Source: a virus. From it: DNA of 24,002 bases. The notes beneath the pieces were generated by a model. That model made no database searches. It was not told where the DNA came from and saw nothing but the letters and a program-made list of their open reading frames with translations. Positions 14-9,134 of this stretch are shown here, in pieces. The stretch lies in UHGV virus genome UHGV-0067928. One strand, written 5' to 3'. Numbering within the stretch: the stretch's first letter is position 1; the number at the start of each line of letters is the position of its first letter. Made by a program: the position numbers and the translations under genes.

Positions 14-1207
14 GTGGATAAAATAATTTTACCCACCGGATTTTTACCCATGCTCACCGTTAAGCAGATTGAAGCAGCAAAGCCGAAAGAAAAACCATAC
101 CGCCTTCTCGATGGTAATGGCCTGTACCTTTATGTCCCTGTGTCAGGGAAAAAGGTATGGCAGCTTCGCTACAAGATTGACGGTAAGGAGAAAATCCTGA
201 CTGTCGGAAAATATCCGCTTATGACTTTGCAGGAGGCAAGGGATAAAGCATGGACTGCGAGGAAAGACATCTCGGTTGGCATAGATCCGGTAAAAGCGAA
301 AAAGGCTTCGTCTAACAACAACTCCTTTAGTGCCATTTACAAGGAATGGTACGAGCACAAGAAGCAAGTGTGGTCTGTAGGGTATGCGACTGAACTTGCC
401 AAAATGTTTGATGACGACATTTTACCCATCATCGGCGGTCTCGAGATTCTGGATATTGAGCCGATGCAACTGCTGGAAGTAATCCGCAGATTTGAAGATC
501 GCGGTGCAATGGAGCGAGCCAACAAAGCCCGCAGAAGATGCGGCGAGGTTTTCCGTTACGCTATTGTCACTGGTAGGGCTAAATATAACCCGGCACCTGA
601 CCTTGCTGACGCCATGAAGGGATACCGCAAGAAAAACTTCCCGTTTCTTCCTGCAGACCAGATCCCGGCATTTAACAAAGCACTGGCAACATTTTCAGGA
701 AGCATCGTATCGCTCATTGCGACCAAGGTTTTACGCTATACAGCCCTAAGAACGAAAGAGCTTCGTTCCATGCAATGGAAGAACGTCGATTTTGAAAACA
801 GGATTATCACCATCGACGCCAGTGTGATGAAGGGTCGCAAAATTCATGTGGTTCCTATGTCAGACCAGGTGGTTGAACTTCTCACTACGCTAAGCTCAAT
901 CACTAAACCAGTATCAGAGTTTGTTTTTGCCGGTCGCAACGATAAGAAGAAGCCAATCTGCGAGAACGCGGTATTGCTTGTGATCAAACAAATCGGCTAT
1001 GAGGGTCTGGAAAGCGGTCACGGATTCAGGCATGAATTCAGCACAATTATGAACGAGCACGAATGGCCTGCTGACGCCATTGAAGTGCAACTTGCACATG
1101 CCAACGGCGGATCTGTGCGCGGAATTTACAACCATGCTCAGTATCTCGATAAACGCAGAGAAATGATGCAGTGGTGGGCGGACTGGCTTGATGAAAAGGT
1201 GGAGTGA
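14..1207 (+). CDS. int: Tyrosine integrase, P4-type (site-specific recombinase)
   Basis: 397-aa ORF with the N-terminal pattern typical of P4-family integrases (IEAAKPKEKPYRLLDGNGLYLYV) and a C-terminal catalytic region. ATG at 50 (MLTVKQIEAAKP...) is the more likely true start; GTG at 14 is the longest-ORF start. Confidence 0.9.
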   Translation: MDKIILPTGFLPMLTVKQIEAAKPKEKPYRLLDGNGLYLYVPVSGKKVWQLRYKIDGKEKILTVGKYPLMTLQEARDKAWTARKDISVGIDPVKAKKASSNNNSFSAIYKEWYEHKKQVWSVGYATELAKMFDDDILPIIGGLEILDIEPMQLLEVIRRFEDRGAMERANKARRRCGEVFRYAIVTGRAKYNPAPDLADAMKGYRKKNFPFLPADQIPAFNKALATFSGSIVSLIATKVLRYTALRTKELRSMQWKNVDFENRIITIDASVMKGRKIHVVPMSDQVVELLTTLSSITKPVSEFVFAGRNDKKKPICENAVLLVIKQIGYEGLESGHGFRHEFSTIMNEHEWPADAIEVQLAHANGGSVRGIYNHAQYLDKRREMMQWWADWLDEKVE

Positions 1208-1404: not shown

Positions 1405-3879
1405 CTACATTGCCATTAATATAAACATAGCCAATTCGTCATAACGAATTCCGTAGCGTCCACCTGCTTTTTTTACAAGAATCATATTTCCTGTTTTATA
1501 TTGAGAATAAATTTTCTCACCTGTATCAGGATCTGTGCTCTCTTCAGTTATCACCTCTTCATCCCATACGTCTGGCCATTCATCGTAACACCAAAAAGCA
1601 TATTGCTCAGGATTTAAACCATGCTTTCTAAGAATATCTCCTACGGTTTGAGCACCAACTCCAAAATGATACCTTGATAACTCCAATCCTTTAAAATTAA
1701 TCGACTCATTAAACCTGAACTTGCATATAATTCCCTTTATTTCCAGCGCAGCATCACGCTCTGCCTGAGTAATGTCATATATTGTTTTAAGTGTTTCATC
1801 TGATGTGCTTATAGTCCCGGATGCAGAATAAATCTGAGCCCATCTAAATGATGGTGCACCAAGAGATTTGCTGTTATCAATAATTGGTGAAAAATTACCT
1901 TTAATGGCAATATTTCCAGAGTCGCCGAATATATTAATAACTGCAGAGTCATCACCATGGTTTTTTACGCTTAAGTTTCTTGATGAAATATTTATATCTT
2001 TGTTATATCCACTAACATAAATCCATCTTTTACCATCAATGTGATGCCCGGAAATATTTCCGTTTGATTGTTCGTCAGGTGACTCTCTAAGAACAATAGC
2101 ATCTACTCCAGACGACCATTGTATTTTTGTATCTGTAGGCCTCCAGTTCTTTATAATGAACGAACCATCAGTAAACTCCGTTTTTATTTGTCTATTGTCT
2201 ACAAATGCGTCTCTTGGTTTAAACTCACTTGTGTTAACGCTGCTCTGAAGATCAGAAGCAAAAAATCTAAGATTTCCTGTATAACCCTGAGTCTCGGTCA
2301 GGTTATACGCAATCATAATTCCATTTTCAAACTCAGATGATGTTATTTTAACATCACGGCAATCACCAAAAATGCAATTTCCTTTATCAAATGTTGTTTG
2401 AGCTTTGAATTTATCAAACCTTAAATTACGAACAGGGAAACCATCAACCTCTAATGCAAAGGATGCAGGAAGGCCAAAGTATTCTGATGGCTTACCTGAT
2501 GTATGATCAAGAGTAGTGGCTACTGTATTCTCAAAAACAGTCCCGCTAAAATTATTACCAATTGACGGAAACCTGATTACACTTATTGTACCTTGTATTT
2601 CAGGAGAAATACCAGATAGTGTGATGTTAGTTCCATCAAATGATGCATCTGAATACGTATATACTGATTCACTGCCAGCAATTTTAAACTGTTTAACTGA
2701 AGTTATTCTCATCGACTTTTTATGTTTAAATGTCACTGAGCTTTCAGTATTACTTACAAGATCAATCTGAGGGCTATTCCTTATCGCGATTCCTGACTGG
2801 ACATAAACGTTATTAAAGTGCGTTTTTTCAGGATTTCCCTTCATTGAAAGGCTCCCGTCATTTTCTGTCAGTAGTAGTCCTTTTACCCTCCAATAGCCGA
2901 CAATCTGTACGTTATCAATAACTGAATCACAGCTATCGTATACATGCAACCCTATATCCCAGTTATCACCCAATGAATAAGAATCAGGGTTATTGTATCC
3001 TTCAATACCATTTTTACTTACCATTATTCTCAGATTGCGTAACTGTGATGCCCTGTTGATACTAACAGCTACGCTCATGGCTTTTGGTGTAGCAGGAGTA
3101 ACACCTACAGAATCTTCATTCGTAAACTCAGTGAACTTACAAGATATCCCTTCAACAATTTTAGCTGGTCTTTCATTAGAGATGTTAAAAAAATATTTGT
3201 TTTTTTCTCCATCACCAGTAAATACAAGATGGGTTCCTTTACTCCAACTTTTTAATAATCTTTCAGGCGCTGGTCTATATGTGTCCCAATAATCAATGCC
3301 AGATCCAACCAGTGAACACCCCTCAGGAATGTTAATATTCTTCTTGATGATGCATATTCCTTCAGGAATTGTTATAACCGACCTTCCAGAGTTTAAAGCT
3401 TTAATAAAAGCATCTGAATCATCTGTTACCCCATCTATTTTTGCTCCCCACCCTCTAACATCTCCACAATCTCTCCATCGTGCCATCTGCAACTCAGGAT
3501 ATTTTTTAGCGCCATCTGGATCTTCTAATTGCTGCCGTAGCTGATCGGGGTCATACTTCAGCACATTAGGAAAATAGAACTGCTGCGCACCATACGCATC
3601 GTATACAGCCATAGAATGGCCTTGCACAGTTACGAACTTGGCAATCTGTCCGTTATATACCGGATATCCAGCAGCGTTAATGATGATTGGCTGCGAAACA
3701 GGAACGTGAGAACCGTCTTCATTCTCCACATAAACCTGAATCTGGTTTTCAGGATTTACTGGGTCAGTGTCAATTTTACCGATATAAATTTTGCCATTGG
3801 CTACGGCTTTAAAAGAACGAGCCATAGTGAAGAGTTGAGAAGGCATGCTCACTACAACATTGGCTGTAATGTCTGTCAT
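1405..3879 (-). CDS. Tailspike protein: P22-type head-binding N-domain, beta-helix receptor-binding/depolymerase body, C-terminal S74-like autochaperone domain
   Basis: N-terminus [11 protein letters not shown]...[12 protein letters not shown]...VLKYDPDQ closely follows the P22 gp9 head-binding domain. Repetitive beta-helix-like middle. C-terminal ~130 aa begin [11 protein letters not shown], resembling the intramolecular-chaperone (peptidase S74) domain of endosialidase-type tail fibres. SD GGAG lies 8 nt upstream of the ATG. Confidence 0.9.
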
Positions 3880-4057: not shown

Positions 4058-4981
4058 TCAGTAGTTATGTACTGAAGGAGGTAATTCTTTATTCTTAAGT
4101 CTCATCCATGCGGAAATATTCGTTGGTCCGTCTGGCTCATTGATATCAACATCTCGTGTGTGATTGATTAAAACGTCTCTCGCCATTCCGATAACATACG
4201 AGAATTCATGACCGTAGTCGTAGCATCTGCCGGAATAGTTCGATTGAATTTGTTTTAATGCCGGATACAGTTCGCGGAATAATGCCTGTGAGCGGTTGGC
4301 ATAATCCCATAGCCATACAAGGCTGTTTGCTTCTTTTGCAGAAAGCTCGTTGGTTTTCTTCTCTTGTTTGCCAATGAACTCACCTTCAAGCGGAACTCGA
4401 GCTGCAAGTGACAGTGCTTCGGTAAACTGCTCCTCACTGATTTCTTTGTATGAACATCCAAAATGGGATTTCAGTGACGACCACATGGTGATCATCGCCT
4501 TAGCCTGTTTTTCCTTTGGCAGAGACTGACCGCGACTCATGACGAGTTGTTTAATGGCTTCCTGCTGTTCAGTGGTGATTTTACCCGGCAACGCCTTTTT
4601 AGCTTTGCGTGGGTTAACTACATGACCTTTAGTCCAGTACTCATAGAGCACATCGTCACACTCTTCCTGATACTGGATTACCTTGTCGCGGATTTCAGGG
4701 CGGACTTTGTTAGGGCTGATGGTTTGCAACCAGCCATTCAGTTTACGTAAAGCAAGGCAAATCATGGTCTGCACACCGCCAACTGAAGGTATTGCGATTT
4801 CCACAATACCTTTAGCAAATCTTTGTTTTAACTTTGTAAACTGTGAAGCCCAATCCATACCCATTCCCTCAACGATAGGTTTCATTGGGGTATACGGTTC
4901 GCCGTTGTGATTGACAACATAAAGCTCTGCGCCGTGGAATGGTACATTGATAGTAGATACTGCTGTTGCTATACTTTTCAT
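4058..4981 (-). CDS. ant: Antirepressor Ant
   Basis: 307 aa. The N-terminal region (MKPIVEGMG...[24 protein letters not shown]...[15 protein letters not shown]) matches the AntA/P22 Ant family; it sits downstream of arc as in P22 immI. Confidence 0.8.
4947..4975 (+). promoter_or_regulatory. Putative Psar promoter (antisense to ant)
   Basis: -35 TTGATA (4947-4952), 17-bp spacer, -10 TATACT (4970-4975), located within the first codons of ant on the opposite strand. Confidence 0.45.
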
Positions 4982-5054
4982 GTCGTTAATTCCTATGCGT
5001 GGTTTTACGATACCGAAGCCCTGACTGTTCCAGCAGTTGGGGCTTCAACTTTTT
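4982..5054 (+). ncRNA. sar: Sar-like small antisense RNA covering the ant ribosome-binding site
   Basis: About 70 nt from the predicted start after Psar to the hairpin GAAGCCC...GGGCTTC (5015-5046) plus TTTTT (5050-5054). Complementary to the ant start/RBS and arc 3' end, the same architecture as P22 sar. Confidence 0.4.
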
Positions 5055-5185
5055 AGGCTGCGAATAAGACGCTGCACTATTTCTGAATTTAAAGACCTGC
5101 CCTCCTCCTTAGCCTTTTCCTTCAATTTTTCTTTAATCTCTGGCGGGATACGAATCCCTAATGGAGCGATGTCTCTAACTTTCAT
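5045..5185 (-). CDS. arc: Arc-like ribbon-helix-helix repressor
   Basis: MKVRDIAPLGIRIPPEIKEKLKEKAKEEGRSLNSEIVQRLIRSLKS (46 aa) shows the Arc/MetJ pattern (GRS-NSEI). The ATG at 5185 is preceded by GAGGTG; the longer ORF-track start at 5245 has no RBS. Confidence 0.75.
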   Translation of the reverse strand: MKVRDIAPLGIRIPPEIKEKLKEKAKEEGRSLNSEIVQRLIRSLKS

Positions 5186-5199
5186 TTCCACCTCACTTG

Positions 5200-5283
5200 C
5201 TACACCGTGACAACTAAATACTACACCGTGTTTATTTAAAGTCAAAAATTTTTTGCCTACACTGTGTAGCTACGCACAGTGTG
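5200..5283. promoter_or_regulatory. Divergent arc/ant and mnt promoter-operator region
   Basis: Direct repeats CTACACCGTG at 5200-5209 and 5221-5230; palindrome CTACAC-T-GTGTAG (5257-5269) inside the longer inverted repeat ACACTGTG...CACAGTGT (5259-5282). Candidate minus-strand promoter: -35 TTGACT (5240-5245), -10 TAGTAT (5218-5223). Confidence 0.5.
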
Positions 5284-5294
5284 CAGGAGGAGAA

Positions 5295-5546
5295 ATGAAA
5301 GGTGCAAGAGATATCAGTCCATTGGGGATTAGGATTCCAGACTATTTAAAGAAACGCATTCAGCAAGAAGCGGATAAAAACGGCAGATCAATGAACTCAG
5401 AGATTGTGCTTATCCTTCAAAAACATGTTGATAATCTTGATGGCTCTCGCTCACTTGAAGGATTCGCTAACCAAGAAGCTGATAAATTCAAAGAGGCGCT
5501 GCTTGAGACGCTGAGGAACATGCAAGAAAACAAAAAACCCACCTGA
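5295..5546 (+). CDS. mnt: Mnt-like ribbon-helix-helix repressor
   Basis: MKGARDISPLGIRIPDYLKKRIQQEADKNGRSMNSEIV... (83 aa) has an RHH N-domain and C-terminal helix like P22 Mnt. SD AGGAGG lies 5 nt upstream of the ATG at 5295, divergent from arc. Confidence 0.75.
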   Translation: MKGARDISPLGIRIPDYLKKRIQQEADKNGRSMNSEIVLILQKHVDNLDGSRSLEGFANQEADKFKEALLETLRNMQENKKPT

Positions 5547-5559
5547 AGGTGGGTTTAGT
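5538..5559 (-). terminator. Intrinsic terminator of the two-gene operon (convergent with the mnt 3' end)
   Basis: Minus strand: ACCCACC-TTCA-GGTGGGT followed by TTTTTGT, immediately after the TAA of the 149-aa gene. The stem overlaps the last codons of mnt. Confidence 0.6.
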
Positions 5560-6004
5560 CAAACATAGTGTTTCTAAAGTCTCTCGCATACCCTGCTAAC
5601 ACTCTCATTCTATTATGATTGTTAGCAGACATGTGAGCTACAGGATGAAAAAGAGCAATCAATGAATACCTGTTCTCATCAAAAAGATTTTGTGCATAAA
5701 CGAGAGCGGTATTGGATGTTTTATGCCACTGCAACTTTTGCGGTGTGCTGATATCTGTGCCATTTTTTATTGGCTCAAATTTATTTTCACCAATTGCTAA
5801 ATGAAGGTGCATAAGACCTGCATCTTCAATATCAGGAGGCCGATGATAAGAGGTGTCTCTGCCAAAATAGCTGGGCAACGTTCCCGTAGACTTGTAGATG
5901 ATAAAATCATCTACAAGTGTTTGTTTTAAATCAGGAAACTCAACAAAAACCGGGGAGAAAAAATAGTCAAAACTATCCTGATTATATTCCACGGTTACTT
6001 GCAT
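5555..6004 (-). CDS. Hypothetical protein, 149 aa; candidate toxin/effector of a two-gene module
   Basis: SD GAGG 7 nt upstream; start lies 8 nt after the stop of the upstream gene. No confident domain; a faint recalled resemblance to YafO-family toxins (FGRD, HLHL segments) is unverified. Confidence 0.6.
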   Translation of the reverse strand: MQVTVEYNQDSFDYFFSPVFVEFPDLKQTLVDDFIIYKSTGTLPSYFGRDTSYHRPPDIEDAGLMHLHLAIGENKFEPIKNGTDISTPQKLQWHKTSNTALVYAQNLFDENRYSLIALFHPVAHMSANNHNRMRVLAGYARDFRNTMFD

Positions 6005-6012
6005 GTTTTACC

Positions 6013-6579
6013 TCAGTGGAAGTTACCAGAGTGAAACACACGAGTCCCGTGCTCAGCAAGCGCACACAAACCAGCCATATCTACGGAACTATCAAAAACA
6101 ACCGGAACACATGAGCGTTGTTTAATAAGACTATTCAGGTTAGTTACGGCAGATCTAGCATCAGCAACAACGATATAGATATCTCTTGCGATCTCTTTAA
6201 AATCAGCAGAAGCTTCTTTGAATACCGATTTCATTGCCCCTTCAAGTCCTCTCAATTGATGCTCTATCAATCGAGACTTTTCTGGTTCAATGATAGACAA
6301 CACATTGTCTACATTCTCATCGGTAGCGTTTGCAAGAACACGATAAGCGTATTTCAGCATTCGAGACAATTCTTTAATCGAAGACACCGCCTCATGAAGC
6401 TCATTATTAGCCCGTTCACTGCTGAATGAGGATTGATGGTAAGCGTGCTGAACGTTATCAGTAACAACCACCTCACAACTGAACGCAGAAGCTTGCTGTA
6501 ATAGCAAACCTATTGCGACTCCAGCTTTGGCAGCGTTCAAGCTAAACATTTCATCAATCCCATTAGTCTCATTGCTCAT
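6013..6579 (-). CDS. Hypothetical protein, 188 aa; first gene of the two-gene module
   Basis: The ATG at 6579 is preceded by AAGGAGG with a 5-nt spacer; the ORF-track start at 6609 is less likely. Predicted helical, no recognisable motif. Confidence 0.6.
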   Translation of the reverse strand: MSNETNGIDEMFSLNAAKAGVAIGLLLQQASAFSCEVVVTDNVQHAYHQSSFSSERANNELHEAVSSIKELSRMLKYAYRVLANATDENVDNVLSIIEPEKSRLIEHQLRGLEGAMKSVFKEASADFKEIARDIYIVVADARSAVTNLNSLIKQRSCVPVVFDSSVDMAGLCALAEHGTRVFHSGNFH

Positions 6580-6646
6580 ACAAACCTCCTTCTTATCGGA
6601 GATTATCAATAGCTATGTATCCATTGAATACACGCTATGCGCAGTA

Positions 6647-6675
6647 ATTCTACGTCACGTGATATCATTATGCAA
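6647..6675 (-). promoter_or_regulatory. Putative promoter of the two-gene operon
   Basis: Minus strand: -35 TTGCAT, 17-bp spacer, -10 TAGAAT. The spacer contains the overlapping palindromes TCACGTGA and TGATATCA. Confidence 0.45.
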
Positions 6676-6750: not shown

Positions 6751-7101
6751 GTGAATGCTCAGTCTGTCATCATGGTTTTCCTTGGGCTGATTGTCGCAAA
6801 ACTATATCCAGACTGGTGGAAAGGGGCATTAGCTACTGTCGCCATCTATTTGCTTTTATCCATCGTTAAGCGATCACTCGCTGAGACCGTAAATCAAGCA
6901 AAACGTTTCTCATTTAAGAGTTTAATAAACTATGTTACTGGGCTTATTTTTTGCCTTTCAATTCTGATCGCTTCGGCTTTTTTGCCCGTATCAATAGCTA
7001 ATTTTTTTGGCGCACCATATGAGGTAGGTTATCTATTCTCTGTTTCCTGTCTTGCCATTGCTCTTCTTTACCTTTGGACGAGATCAAAGAATAAAAATTA
7101 G
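6751..7101 (+). CDS. Small integral membrane protein (about 4 TM helices); candidate superinfection-exclusion or immunity protein
   Basis: The GTG at 6751 is preceded by AAGGAGG; the upstream ATGs at 6697/6700 lack an RBS. Four hydrophobic segments. Transcribed divergently from the two-gene operon, opposite to the late genes. Confidence 0.55.
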   Translation: MNAQSVIMVFLGLIVAKLYPDWWKGALATVAIYLLLSIVKRSLAETVNQAKRFSFKSLINYVTGLIFCLSILIASAFLPVSIANFFGAPYEVGYLFSVSCLAIALLYLWTRSKNKN

Positions 7102-7130
7102 CCATCCGTGGCTGCCAGTTATTGAGTTTC
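7100..7130 (-). terminator. Weak putative terminator after gp16
   Basis: Minus strand: AGCCA-CGGA-TGGCT followed by AATTTTTATT. Short stem. Confidence 0.3.
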
Positions 7131-9134
7131 TTTTTGTGATGCCTGTGCGACTCTGGTGAGCGATTGTGTGACCGTACTGATCGCTCTGTCATATGCTGTG
7201 CTACCTTTTGGCGTATTTGCCAGACGTAACAAGGCATTTCGTATAACAGGGCTTTCGTATGCCTTCGCTGCTCCTCCTACGACACCAGCAGCAGGAACAA
7301 CAAACGCAGCCGTTTTTAGCATCCCCGCTAATACTGCTGCGTTTATGATGCCACCACCAACTAACAATCCATAAAGCTGCTGACCATTTAAGTTTTGAAC
7401 GTTCGCTTTTGCCGCGTGTCTTGTATCGTTGAGGTATTTAATAACGCCGTCCAGTTCCTTTCCATGTACGCCTTTAAAGAAAGTTGCTGATTGCTTCCTG
7501 TTCCGGTGTAACGCATTAATAAACTTTTCAACACTAATATTTCCAGACGGATCAGTCGCCTTATCTACAGCATTCTGAACTATGGCTGCTCGTGCGTTTT
7601 GCCTACCATTGTCATCCAGAAGCCTGTAAAGCTGAGAACGTTCTGATGGGTTTTGGCTAAAAACGAGTTTTGTTACATCCTCAGGTGTAGCCTTGCCGCT
7701 GGCTATTGCCTTTTGAACGCGCGTTCTTCCCATCATGTCATTGAATCTAGCCCATGAGCGATCAACCCTAGACATATTGGCAGCTTCTTCTGAGCCTAGT
7801 TTTTGGGATACTGCTTTTTTCATATCCGCTGTATATGCCTTGTAGACAATATCGCTGGCTTTCTGGAGCGTATCTTTATCAACAGTGTCAGATGACGCCA
7901 TAAATCGCTTTCGAAGATCGGTTCTGTTTTCCCTCGCCAGACGCAGGTCATTTGGTCCGCTGGTGATATCGTCTTTAAATTGCTGCAAGACTTTTACCGC
8001 GGCTCTATCCTGAGATTTGCCCGGGCGGCTTAACACGGCAATCTGATTGTCGATAGCTTTTACCGTGTTTGAGAGATCGACAGGGGTATCCCCCATAGCG
8101 TCAATTATGCGGTTATATCGCTTTCCTGCTGCCTCAATGAATTTTTGCTGCCCTTTAGTCGCAGACTCATAAAGCTGTTTATCTGAAATTCCCCCCAGAC
8201 CATCGCTAAATGTTCTGACTAAATTTTCTCGTGCTTGTTGTTGATTCAGTCGGTTCTTACCGGTTCCAAAAAAAGGAACTCTTTCGCCTAATGTTTGGGC
8301 CTGCCCCTGCATAAAGGTTTTATCTTTCAGCGTGTCACTGGTCATTAACGGCAGGTTTCTTTCCGACGCAAAATCGACAGCAGCCTTTGCTTCCGGTGAC
8401 ATCTCACCGCGAACAGCCCTGGAAACCGCACTAACTGTATTTTCCAGCCCCTTGCCAACACCACCAATGCCAGCAGAAATTACCGTTTGTGCAGGATCAA
8501 TATCTTCTCCTCCAGCAAGACTGGTGCCACCCTGTAGTGCTAAATCTGTAGCAGCTGATTTCCCTATGGCACCAAGCACCGTTCCAGCCCTGCCCGCTGG
8601 TGTGAACGCTAACGCATTAGCAAGAAACGAAGTCAGGTCTTGCGGTGATAAACCTGGCTTGTTCAGGGCATAATCACCGGATGGCAGGGAAACGATAGTG
8701 TTACCCTTCTCATCCTGCCTTAATTTCGCCCCCATACTCTGAAGAATCTTTTCCTGAGACGCCTCGGAGCCGAAAAGTTGAGACCATCCAGCCTTCAGGG
8801 CATCCATGCTTAGTGAGTTCAACTCAGGGGCAGCCCCAACATTTTGCAGTCTCTCCATTTCTGGTGTCATTCGGCTTTCACCGGTAACGGCATCGCGCAT
8901 TGCAGCACCTAAAACAGCCCCTTGCTCAGCAGAGCGATCTAGTCCTTCCTTCTGCTGAGTGGCAAGCTGTGTATATCCTGATGCAAGTGAGTTGTCTGCT
9001 GGCGATTGCTGAACACCTTGTTGTGTTGGCGCTGACTGACCAGCAAAATACTCATCAATGGCGGTGCCAATATCTTCCGTGCTCGTACCATCAGGGAAGG
9101 TAAATGTCTTACCGTTTGCAGTTACTTTCATCAT
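7119..9134 (-). CDS. Ejection (E) protein, P22 gp16-like
   Basis: 671-aa ORF in the gp16 position, last gene of the 14-7-20-16 block. Start ATG overlaps the gp20 stop (ATGA). Confidence 0.7.

Follow-up and report, generated by a model that had tools for sequence, protein, structure and literature searches.

Toxins of the YafO type (PF_YafO), which belong to the RelE/ParE superfamily, degrade mRNA, and their genes are arranged in the order antitoxin and then toxin (PMC11980606). The closest described system is the yafN-yafO pair in the dinB-yafNOP operon of Escherichia coli K-12, where a 97-aa antitoxin of the Phd/YefM type, YafN, is encoded just ahead of the toxin, and where LexA control belongs to the definition of the subtype. 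A survey of E. coli found YafO_toxin genes with 13 partner clusters and only 8% known antitoxins (PMC10790755), and YafO loci of Pseudomonas prophages have been reported as an “orphan” toxin for which no antitoxin was recognised (PMC10449497). Some toxin-antitoxin (TA) systems of the RelE/ParE superfamily have a documented role in abortive infection (PMC11980606). Here we describe a two-gene cassette in the virus genome UHGV-0067928, whose whole stretch of 24,002 nucleotides was analysed and is called the window throughout. This window comes from an E. coli prophage that is P22-like and related to Sf6, HK620 and N7. We read the cassette, with a probability of roughly 70%, as a bicistronic type II-like TA module in which the product of the upstream gene (gene 1) neutralises that of the downstream gene (gene 2), the two being carried as an autonomous moron in the variable interval between gp16 and the immI region. 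YafO toxins were already known, and what is new is the uncharacterised partner, which is not YafN.

Judged by its sequence, gene 2 is clearly a member of the YafO_toxin family within the RelE/ParE superfamily and not an ortholog of the K-12 protein. With Pfam PF13957 (YafO_toxin) it scores 78.9 bits where the cut-off is 25 (E = 3.4e-22); the match spans positions 3 to 101 of a profile of 101, and identity to K-12 YafO is 38% over about 120 residues (E = 7e-20). A seven-member alignment that includes K-12 YafO has, among others, the invariant residues D33, F34, P44, F47, G48, D50, Y53, H66, H68, Y103 and H124; the FGRD motif, the HxH motif and the C-terminal histidine are shared with the K-12 toxin. 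It differs from the K-12 toxin in having about 16 additional residues close to the N-terminus, and it scores 79 bits, below the NCBIfam PRK09885 equivalog cut-off of 153. By analogy with its family, the protein is a putative mRNA endoribonuclease. In RefSeq this very protein is already annotated, in 55 complete E. coli genomes, as “type II toxin-antitoxin system YafO family toxin”, and gene 2 is therefore not new. The preliminary description of this DNA, made without database searches, had found no nameable domain in either product and had noted a faint likeness of gene 2 to YafO; that likeness turned out to be full family membership, and the lack of a name holds for gene 1 alone.

Gene 1 is the only one of the pair whose family has no name. 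It matches a single cluster, phrog_8416 (E = 4e-95), which carries no annotated function, and it has no match in Pfam, NCBIfam, PADLOC or the sequences of the PDB beyond sub-threshold coiled-coil noise, the best PADLOC score being 14.8 bits, of the coiled-coil type, to the tail of ZorA. A Pfam scan of 26 family members returned no recurrent family, and the family profile recognised neither YafN nor SieA. The family is small, since a profile searched exhaustively against 1.84 billion representative proteins yielded only 23 relatives at E <= 0.001; a scan for the close family returned only 5 viral contigs. One relative, the partner in Escherichia phage PhiR40_1 (locus L005, 222-761), bears the depositor label “YafM antitoxin”, for which we traced no experimental paper, and in a Pectobacterium genomics paper “YafO/YafM” is an annotation label only.

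The structure predicted for gene 1 with AlphaFold2 (AF2; mean predicted local distance difference test score, pLDDT, 73.5) is all-helical: a first helix spans residues 16-37, residues 38-53 form a disordered linker, a bundle of helices occupies 54-156 and, after a short disordered stretch, a terminal helix follows at 168-183. Fold searches with this model returned generic helical bundles only. Sequence conservation in the family is found in the C-terminal half, where the pattern QLRGLEG ... ARS ... LN.L..Q ... F.S.ID..GL..LA.HGT can be followed, and the extreme C-terminus is conserved as well, with many members ending in F-H. The analysis thus defines one YafO partner family together with its conserved core. 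Gene 1 differs from the 97-aa Phd/YefM-type YafN in being 188 aa long and helical throughout.

All the elements of the operon lie on the minus strand and follow one another in the order promoter, Shine-Dalgarno (SD) sequence, gene 1, 8-nt junction, gene 2 and terminator (Table 1). The two open reading frames (ORFs), the 8-nt gap, the strong SD and the strong terminator had been described before, with no strand given, and every one of them is present. The SD is invariant in the relatives L010 and L012, whose proteins are 67-98% identical to those of the window. The junction with TGAGGTxA, again 8 nt long, recurs in HK639, in the siphovirus loci L017 and L018 and in vB_PaeS-D14L, distant members sharing the motif TGA-GGTxAxxx-ATG, and the SD-like GAGGT lying over the stop codon of gene 1 suggests translational coupling. 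The terminator overlaps the stop codon of gene 2 and stands back-to-back with the end of mnt; as RNA it folds with a free energy of -14.1 kcal/mol (z = -3.41), a stability equalled by none of 200 shuffles. The promoter, which had been called near-consensus, fared less evenly. Its pattern TTGCAT-17-TAGAAT occurs exactly once in the window where shuffles lead one to expect 0, and the core, TTGCA at -35 and TAnAnT at -10, is kept in L010 and L012; the match to consensus, however, is 3 of 6 at -35 (against TTGACA) and 5 of 6 at -10, which is why a consensus scan did not flag it. As a promoter, this segment is plausible and remains putative.

Table 1. Positions of the pair, its signals and the neighbouring features in the window.
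Feature	Position	Strand	Description
Integrase	14-1207		
Tailspike	1405-3879		P22 head-binding domain
Ant	4058-4981		P22_AR_N/C domains
sar antisense RNA	4983-5050	+	Rfam RF00262, 81 bits against a gathering score of 43; between arc and ant
Arc and Mnt	between the sar/ant side and the pair		both present
Intrinsic terminator	5526-5556	-	9-bp GC-rich stem (5556-5535), 4-nt loop, UUUUUUGUUUUCU tail
Gene 2	5555-6004	-	ATG 6004, stop 5555; 149-aa YafO-family toxin, putative mRNA endoribonuclease
Intercistronic junction	6005-6012	-	8 nt; TTCCACTGA/GGTAAAAC/ATG; SD-like GAGGT overlapping the gene 1 stop
Gene 1	6013-6579	-	ATG 6579, stop 6013; 188-aa helical protein, phrog_8416; putative antitoxin
Shine-Dalgarno sequence	6585-6591	-	AAGGAGG, 5 nt before the gene 1 ATG; direct reading
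Putative sigma-70 promoter	6647-6675	-	-35 TTGCAT (6675-6670), 17-nt spacer, -10 TAGAAT (6652-6647)
Membrane ORF	6751-7101	+	longest ORF from 6697; GTG start 6751, strong SD AAGGAGG
gp16-like ejection protein	7119-9134	-	late genes, gp16 included, on the minus strand

The two genes keep company wherever we looked. Every homologue of gene 1 whose neighbourhood was examined is followed by a PF13957 gene after a gap of 3-18 nt, and a search from the toxin side led to L017, L018 and the phage-plasmid CMS-2020a (L022), each with a partner of the family directly upstream. The family profile recognises all the partners examined except that of the phage-plasmid L021, a 175-aa ORF whose end is overlapped by the toxin start by 10 nt and whose profile match is marginal; the distant partners on the phage-plasmids pJN2-26 and CMS-2020a score 36-38 bits. 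The preliminary description had proposed looking for the pair in other prophages, and we find it at more than 15 distinct loci, among them P22-like, lambdoid, P2-like and Pseudomonas prophages, phage-plasmids and IncFIB plasmids. In HK639 it makes up genes 17 and 18, between the tape-measure and minor tail genes, with the same module and junction as in the window and identities of 38% (gene 1 to HK639_17) and 59.5% (gene 2 to HK639_18). It is present in the Pseudomonas phages vB_PaeS-D14L and YMC11/02/R656, which, like HK639, differ from the window in host element and insertion site, in Escherichia phage PhiR40_1, in a Pseudomonas chlororaphis prophage (L014) and in a further locus, L016. A P2-like element (L013, 1-1488) carries it by an OLD-family nuclease (AAA_15/AAA_21/OLD-like TOPRIM) and Ogr/Delta, and in L015 (2018-2821) it sits in a tail-gene moron beside a gene pair with a SocA_Panacea domain; HK639, L016, L017 and L018 likewise have it as a tail-gene moron. 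The pair is also found on 43 Klebsiella plasmids, flanked by IS5 on an IncFIB replicon (L020).

Of 5,426 complete E. coli genomes, 55 carry the pair (identity >=99%); in all 55 the match takes in no less than 80% of the query, which comprised both genes, and both genes are annotated in every genome listed. P22-like prophages with differing tailspikes and neighbours are among the carriers, and most P22-like phages are without the pair. Both genes are under purifying selection, with ratios of nonsynonymous to synonymous substitution (dN/dS) of about 0.11 for gene 1 and about 0.02 for gene 2, values to be read with dS being saturated. Of the two, the partner is the faster to diverge: in two comparisons the identities were 38% against 70% and 37% against 55%. 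The pair thus moves as a unit among P22-like, lambdoid, P2-like and Pseudomonas prophages, phage-plasmids and IncF plasmids, and the sites where it settles are mostly hotspots for accessory or defence genes.

We favour the TA reading because gene 2 belongs to a known RNase toxin family, its upstream partner is coupled to it and inherited with it, this partner evolves faster and has a conserved C-terminus, and the pair is carried by plasmids and prophages alike. The layout is that of a type II system, with co-oriented, coupled genes, the partner upstream, a single promoter and a single terminator, and with joint inheritance over unrelated replicons. A TA-like character had already been suggested for this operon, and the family of gene 2 and the recurrence of the pair in many unrelated mobile elements now speak for it. 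In the mechanism that we propose, the endoribonuclease encoded by gene 2 would cleave mRNA and so arrest translation. The product of gene 1, which is translated ahead of the toxin and, with its strong SD, probably in excess of it, would most likely bind the toxin directly through its conserved C-terminal half, that is, through the bundle and the terminal helix ending in ...SGNFH. Owing to a promoter and a terminator of its own, the cassette would be expressed in the lysogen. With its neutralising role confirmed, gene 1 would found a new antitoxin family in the RelE/ParE network.

Several observations count against this reading. No DNA-binding domain of the RHH, HTH, AbrB or Phd type is recognisable in the 26 family members, so that the classical autoregulation of type II systems is unsupported for gene 1. 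The palindromes described earlier in the promoter spacer do exist, as two 8-bp sequences (TGATATCA and TCACGTGA), but they are not kept in the 67% identical relative L012 and are short enough to have arisen by chance. A role for them as operator is rejected, both for this lack of conservation and because no inverted repeats shared by the upstream regions of HK639, L017 and L018 were found. Gene 1 is unrelated to K-12 YafN (BLASTP E = 36). The fold matches of gene 2, which are to HigB, RelE and YafQ, come from a poor AF2 model (pLDDT 52.5) and are therefore only suggestive. In PADLOC-DB 2.0 gene 2 has no hit and gene 1 matches no defence model, and we found no experimental paper in the literature on the pair or on any member of the partner family; the novel defence module that the preliminary description had put forward as a candidate is thus an overstatement. 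To these must be added the hydrophobic N-terminus of gene 1, which is odd for an antitoxin since an antitoxin is expected to be cytoplasmic.

This N-terminus deserves a closer look. By a heuristic measure, 25 of the 26 family members have N-terminal hydropathy resembling the signal peptides of OmpA, PhoA and MalE, and an AxA-like motif often comes after the hydrophobic stretch. In gene 1 the hydrophobic segment spans residues 11-36 or so, the first helix of the AF2 model is at 16-37, and the linker that follows it, ahead of the bundle, is disordered and variable in the family. In the partner from L021, the marginal relative, the N-terminus is even that of a textbook signal peptide, MKFNIQYLHAAVVMVLSSLQPQAKA/AE. 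One might therefore suppose that gene 1 is exported or membrane-anchored by a functional signal peptide or anchor and is no soluble antitoxin at all, with the toxin controlled through export or the membrane: secretion instead of proteolysis might drain the neutraliser, or the protein might detect what happens at the inner membrane, the entry of phage DNA for example. P22 SieA, of the same locus, is annotated as a superinfection-exclusion protein, which would suit such a role. We nevertheless consider it unlikely. The signal-peptide call comes from the heuristic alone, and the subfamily to which the window belongs has an acidic n-region and a hydrophobic core of only about 9 residues. Close homologues show little or no variation in the segment GVAIGLLLQQASAFSCE but vary over the next 20 residues, a pattern that, from the alignment, is unlike that of an ordinary signal peptide. 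The toxin, moreover, has no export signal, and the conserved C-terminal half of an exported gene 1 product would sit on the wrong side of the membrane for binding it.

Several functions are conceivable for the segment. It could be a genuine signal for export or for anchoring in the membrane, it could tether the protein to the membrane, it could render the antitoxin labile as a hydrophobic degron, or it could form part of the surface that binds the toxin. Should the signal-like N-terminus be functional, the neutraliser might be cleared continually through Sec export or membrane insertion, or be passed to membrane proteases or chaperones, and release of the toxin would then be tied to the state of the envelope, to secretion or to the entry of phage DNA and not to Lon or Clp. 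This would be an unusual control of a cytoplasmic toxin, and we hold it to be a long shot.

Returning to gene 1 as a soluble neutraliser, loss of this protein would free the toxin, with abortive infection or exclusion of superinfecting phages as one consequence and addiction that stabilises the carrier element as another, and either or both are plausible roles. We read them from the neighbourhoods of the pair and from known RelE/ParE-superfamily TAs only. The neighbourhoods are those of accessory and defence genes, comprising the sieA interval of P22, the OLD and Ogr genes of the P2-like element, the SocA_Panacea pair, tail-gene morons and IS5-flanked plasmids. Perhaps, though, the pair is purely selfish, stabilising prophages and plasmids by post-segregational killing and giving no protection against phages. 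Its carriage on the 43 Klebsiella plasmids between IS5 copies and on phage-plasmids would fit such a life, as would the absence of any match to PADLOC defence models. The recurrence of the pair in prophage moron and defence hotspots beside defence-type genes speaks the other way, as do the TA modules of its superfamily documented in abortive infection (PMC11980606), and we regard a purely selfish module as possible but somewhat doubtful. The two roles, selfish and defensive, do not exclude each other.

Among the defence systems of this superfamily, the HigBA-chaperone type of toxin-antitoxin-chaperone (TAC) system offers a comparison: it would share with the pair a BECR-fold RNase toxin, a protein antitoxin and carriage on mobile elements, whereas the pair has no third, chaperone gene and its antitoxin belongs to another family. 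The comparison with K-12 yafN-yafO extends from the toxin to the arrangement, since the antitoxin-toxin order and the tight coupling are common to both. Neither mark of the yafNO subtype is found here: the partner is not YafN, and control by the SOS response through LexA is rejected, there being no CTG-N10-CAG LexA-type box between 6580 and 6760. The pair also travels on mobile elements and is not part of a dinB operon.

The orientation of the cassette raises one further possibility, namely that the YafO-like protein serves lytic growth, for instance by shutting off host mRNA, with gene 1 as a timing regulator or chaperone. The operon does run in the direction of the late structural operon, in which gp16 and the genes upstream of it are on the minus strand, and the pairs of siphoviruses lie within tail-gene clusters. 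The operon has its own promoter and terminator, however, and a terminator-like hairpin (7100-7113, minus strand) directly after the stop codon of the gp16-like gene would shield it from read-through out of the late operon. Plasmids that are not phages carry the pair as well, and it must be dispensable for lytic growth, because most P22-like phages are without it. We think a lytic function very improbable.

The surroundings of the cassette are those of a P22-type prophage. The match to sar RNA shows that the P22-type immI region is complete, and the order in P22 is 16, sieA (on the opposite strand), orf59a, mnt, arc, ant and 9. The pair had been placed at the sieA-equivalent locus, and of this the interval between gp16 and immI is right, with Ant, Arc, Mnt and sar all in place; the counterpart of sieA by position and orientation, though, is the membrane ORF, and the pair fills the slot between this ORF and mnt. 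What the pair has in common with P22 sieA is the same variable gp16-mnt interval and the character of an accessory gene with presumed expression in the lysogen; what sets it apart is the lack of sequence similarity. Homology of either gene to SieA is rejected, gene 1 giving no alignment and neither gene being similar. If gene 1 is confirmed as the neutraliser, the cassette would be a testable candidate exclusion module at the sieA locus of P22.

The membrane ORF is transcribed divergently from the pair, and about four hydrophobic helices are predicted in its small product. Similarity to SieA is not detectable (E = 0.47), and tblastn against 50,697 phage records gave no match. It occurs in some carriers of the pair, such as the prophage of E. 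coli ATCC 11775 (L001), and is unannotated in others, such as L019. By its place it may be the true exclusion-gene analogue of the prophage.

Two other arrangements around the pair were observed. In the ATCC 11775 prophage (L001, 6082-6618) and in at least 19 other genomes, a ClpP-like gene of 178 aa (Pfam CLP_protease, E = 2e-11), absent from the window, lies between mnt and the YafO gene, its start overlapping the mnt stop; it might be linked to the pair, for example through turnover of the antitoxin, or else be an independent moron. The order partner, YafO, Mnt-like Arc protein (on the opposite strand), Arc and Ant is found both in the window (4058-6579) and in L018 (2420-5123), where it is set among the clustered tail genes of a siphovirus contig that is unrelated, and Arc and Ant adjoin the pair in the Pseudomonas prophage L014 (761-3990) as well. 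Since an immI-type module and the TA pair adjoin in all three, joint mobility of the two is suggested.

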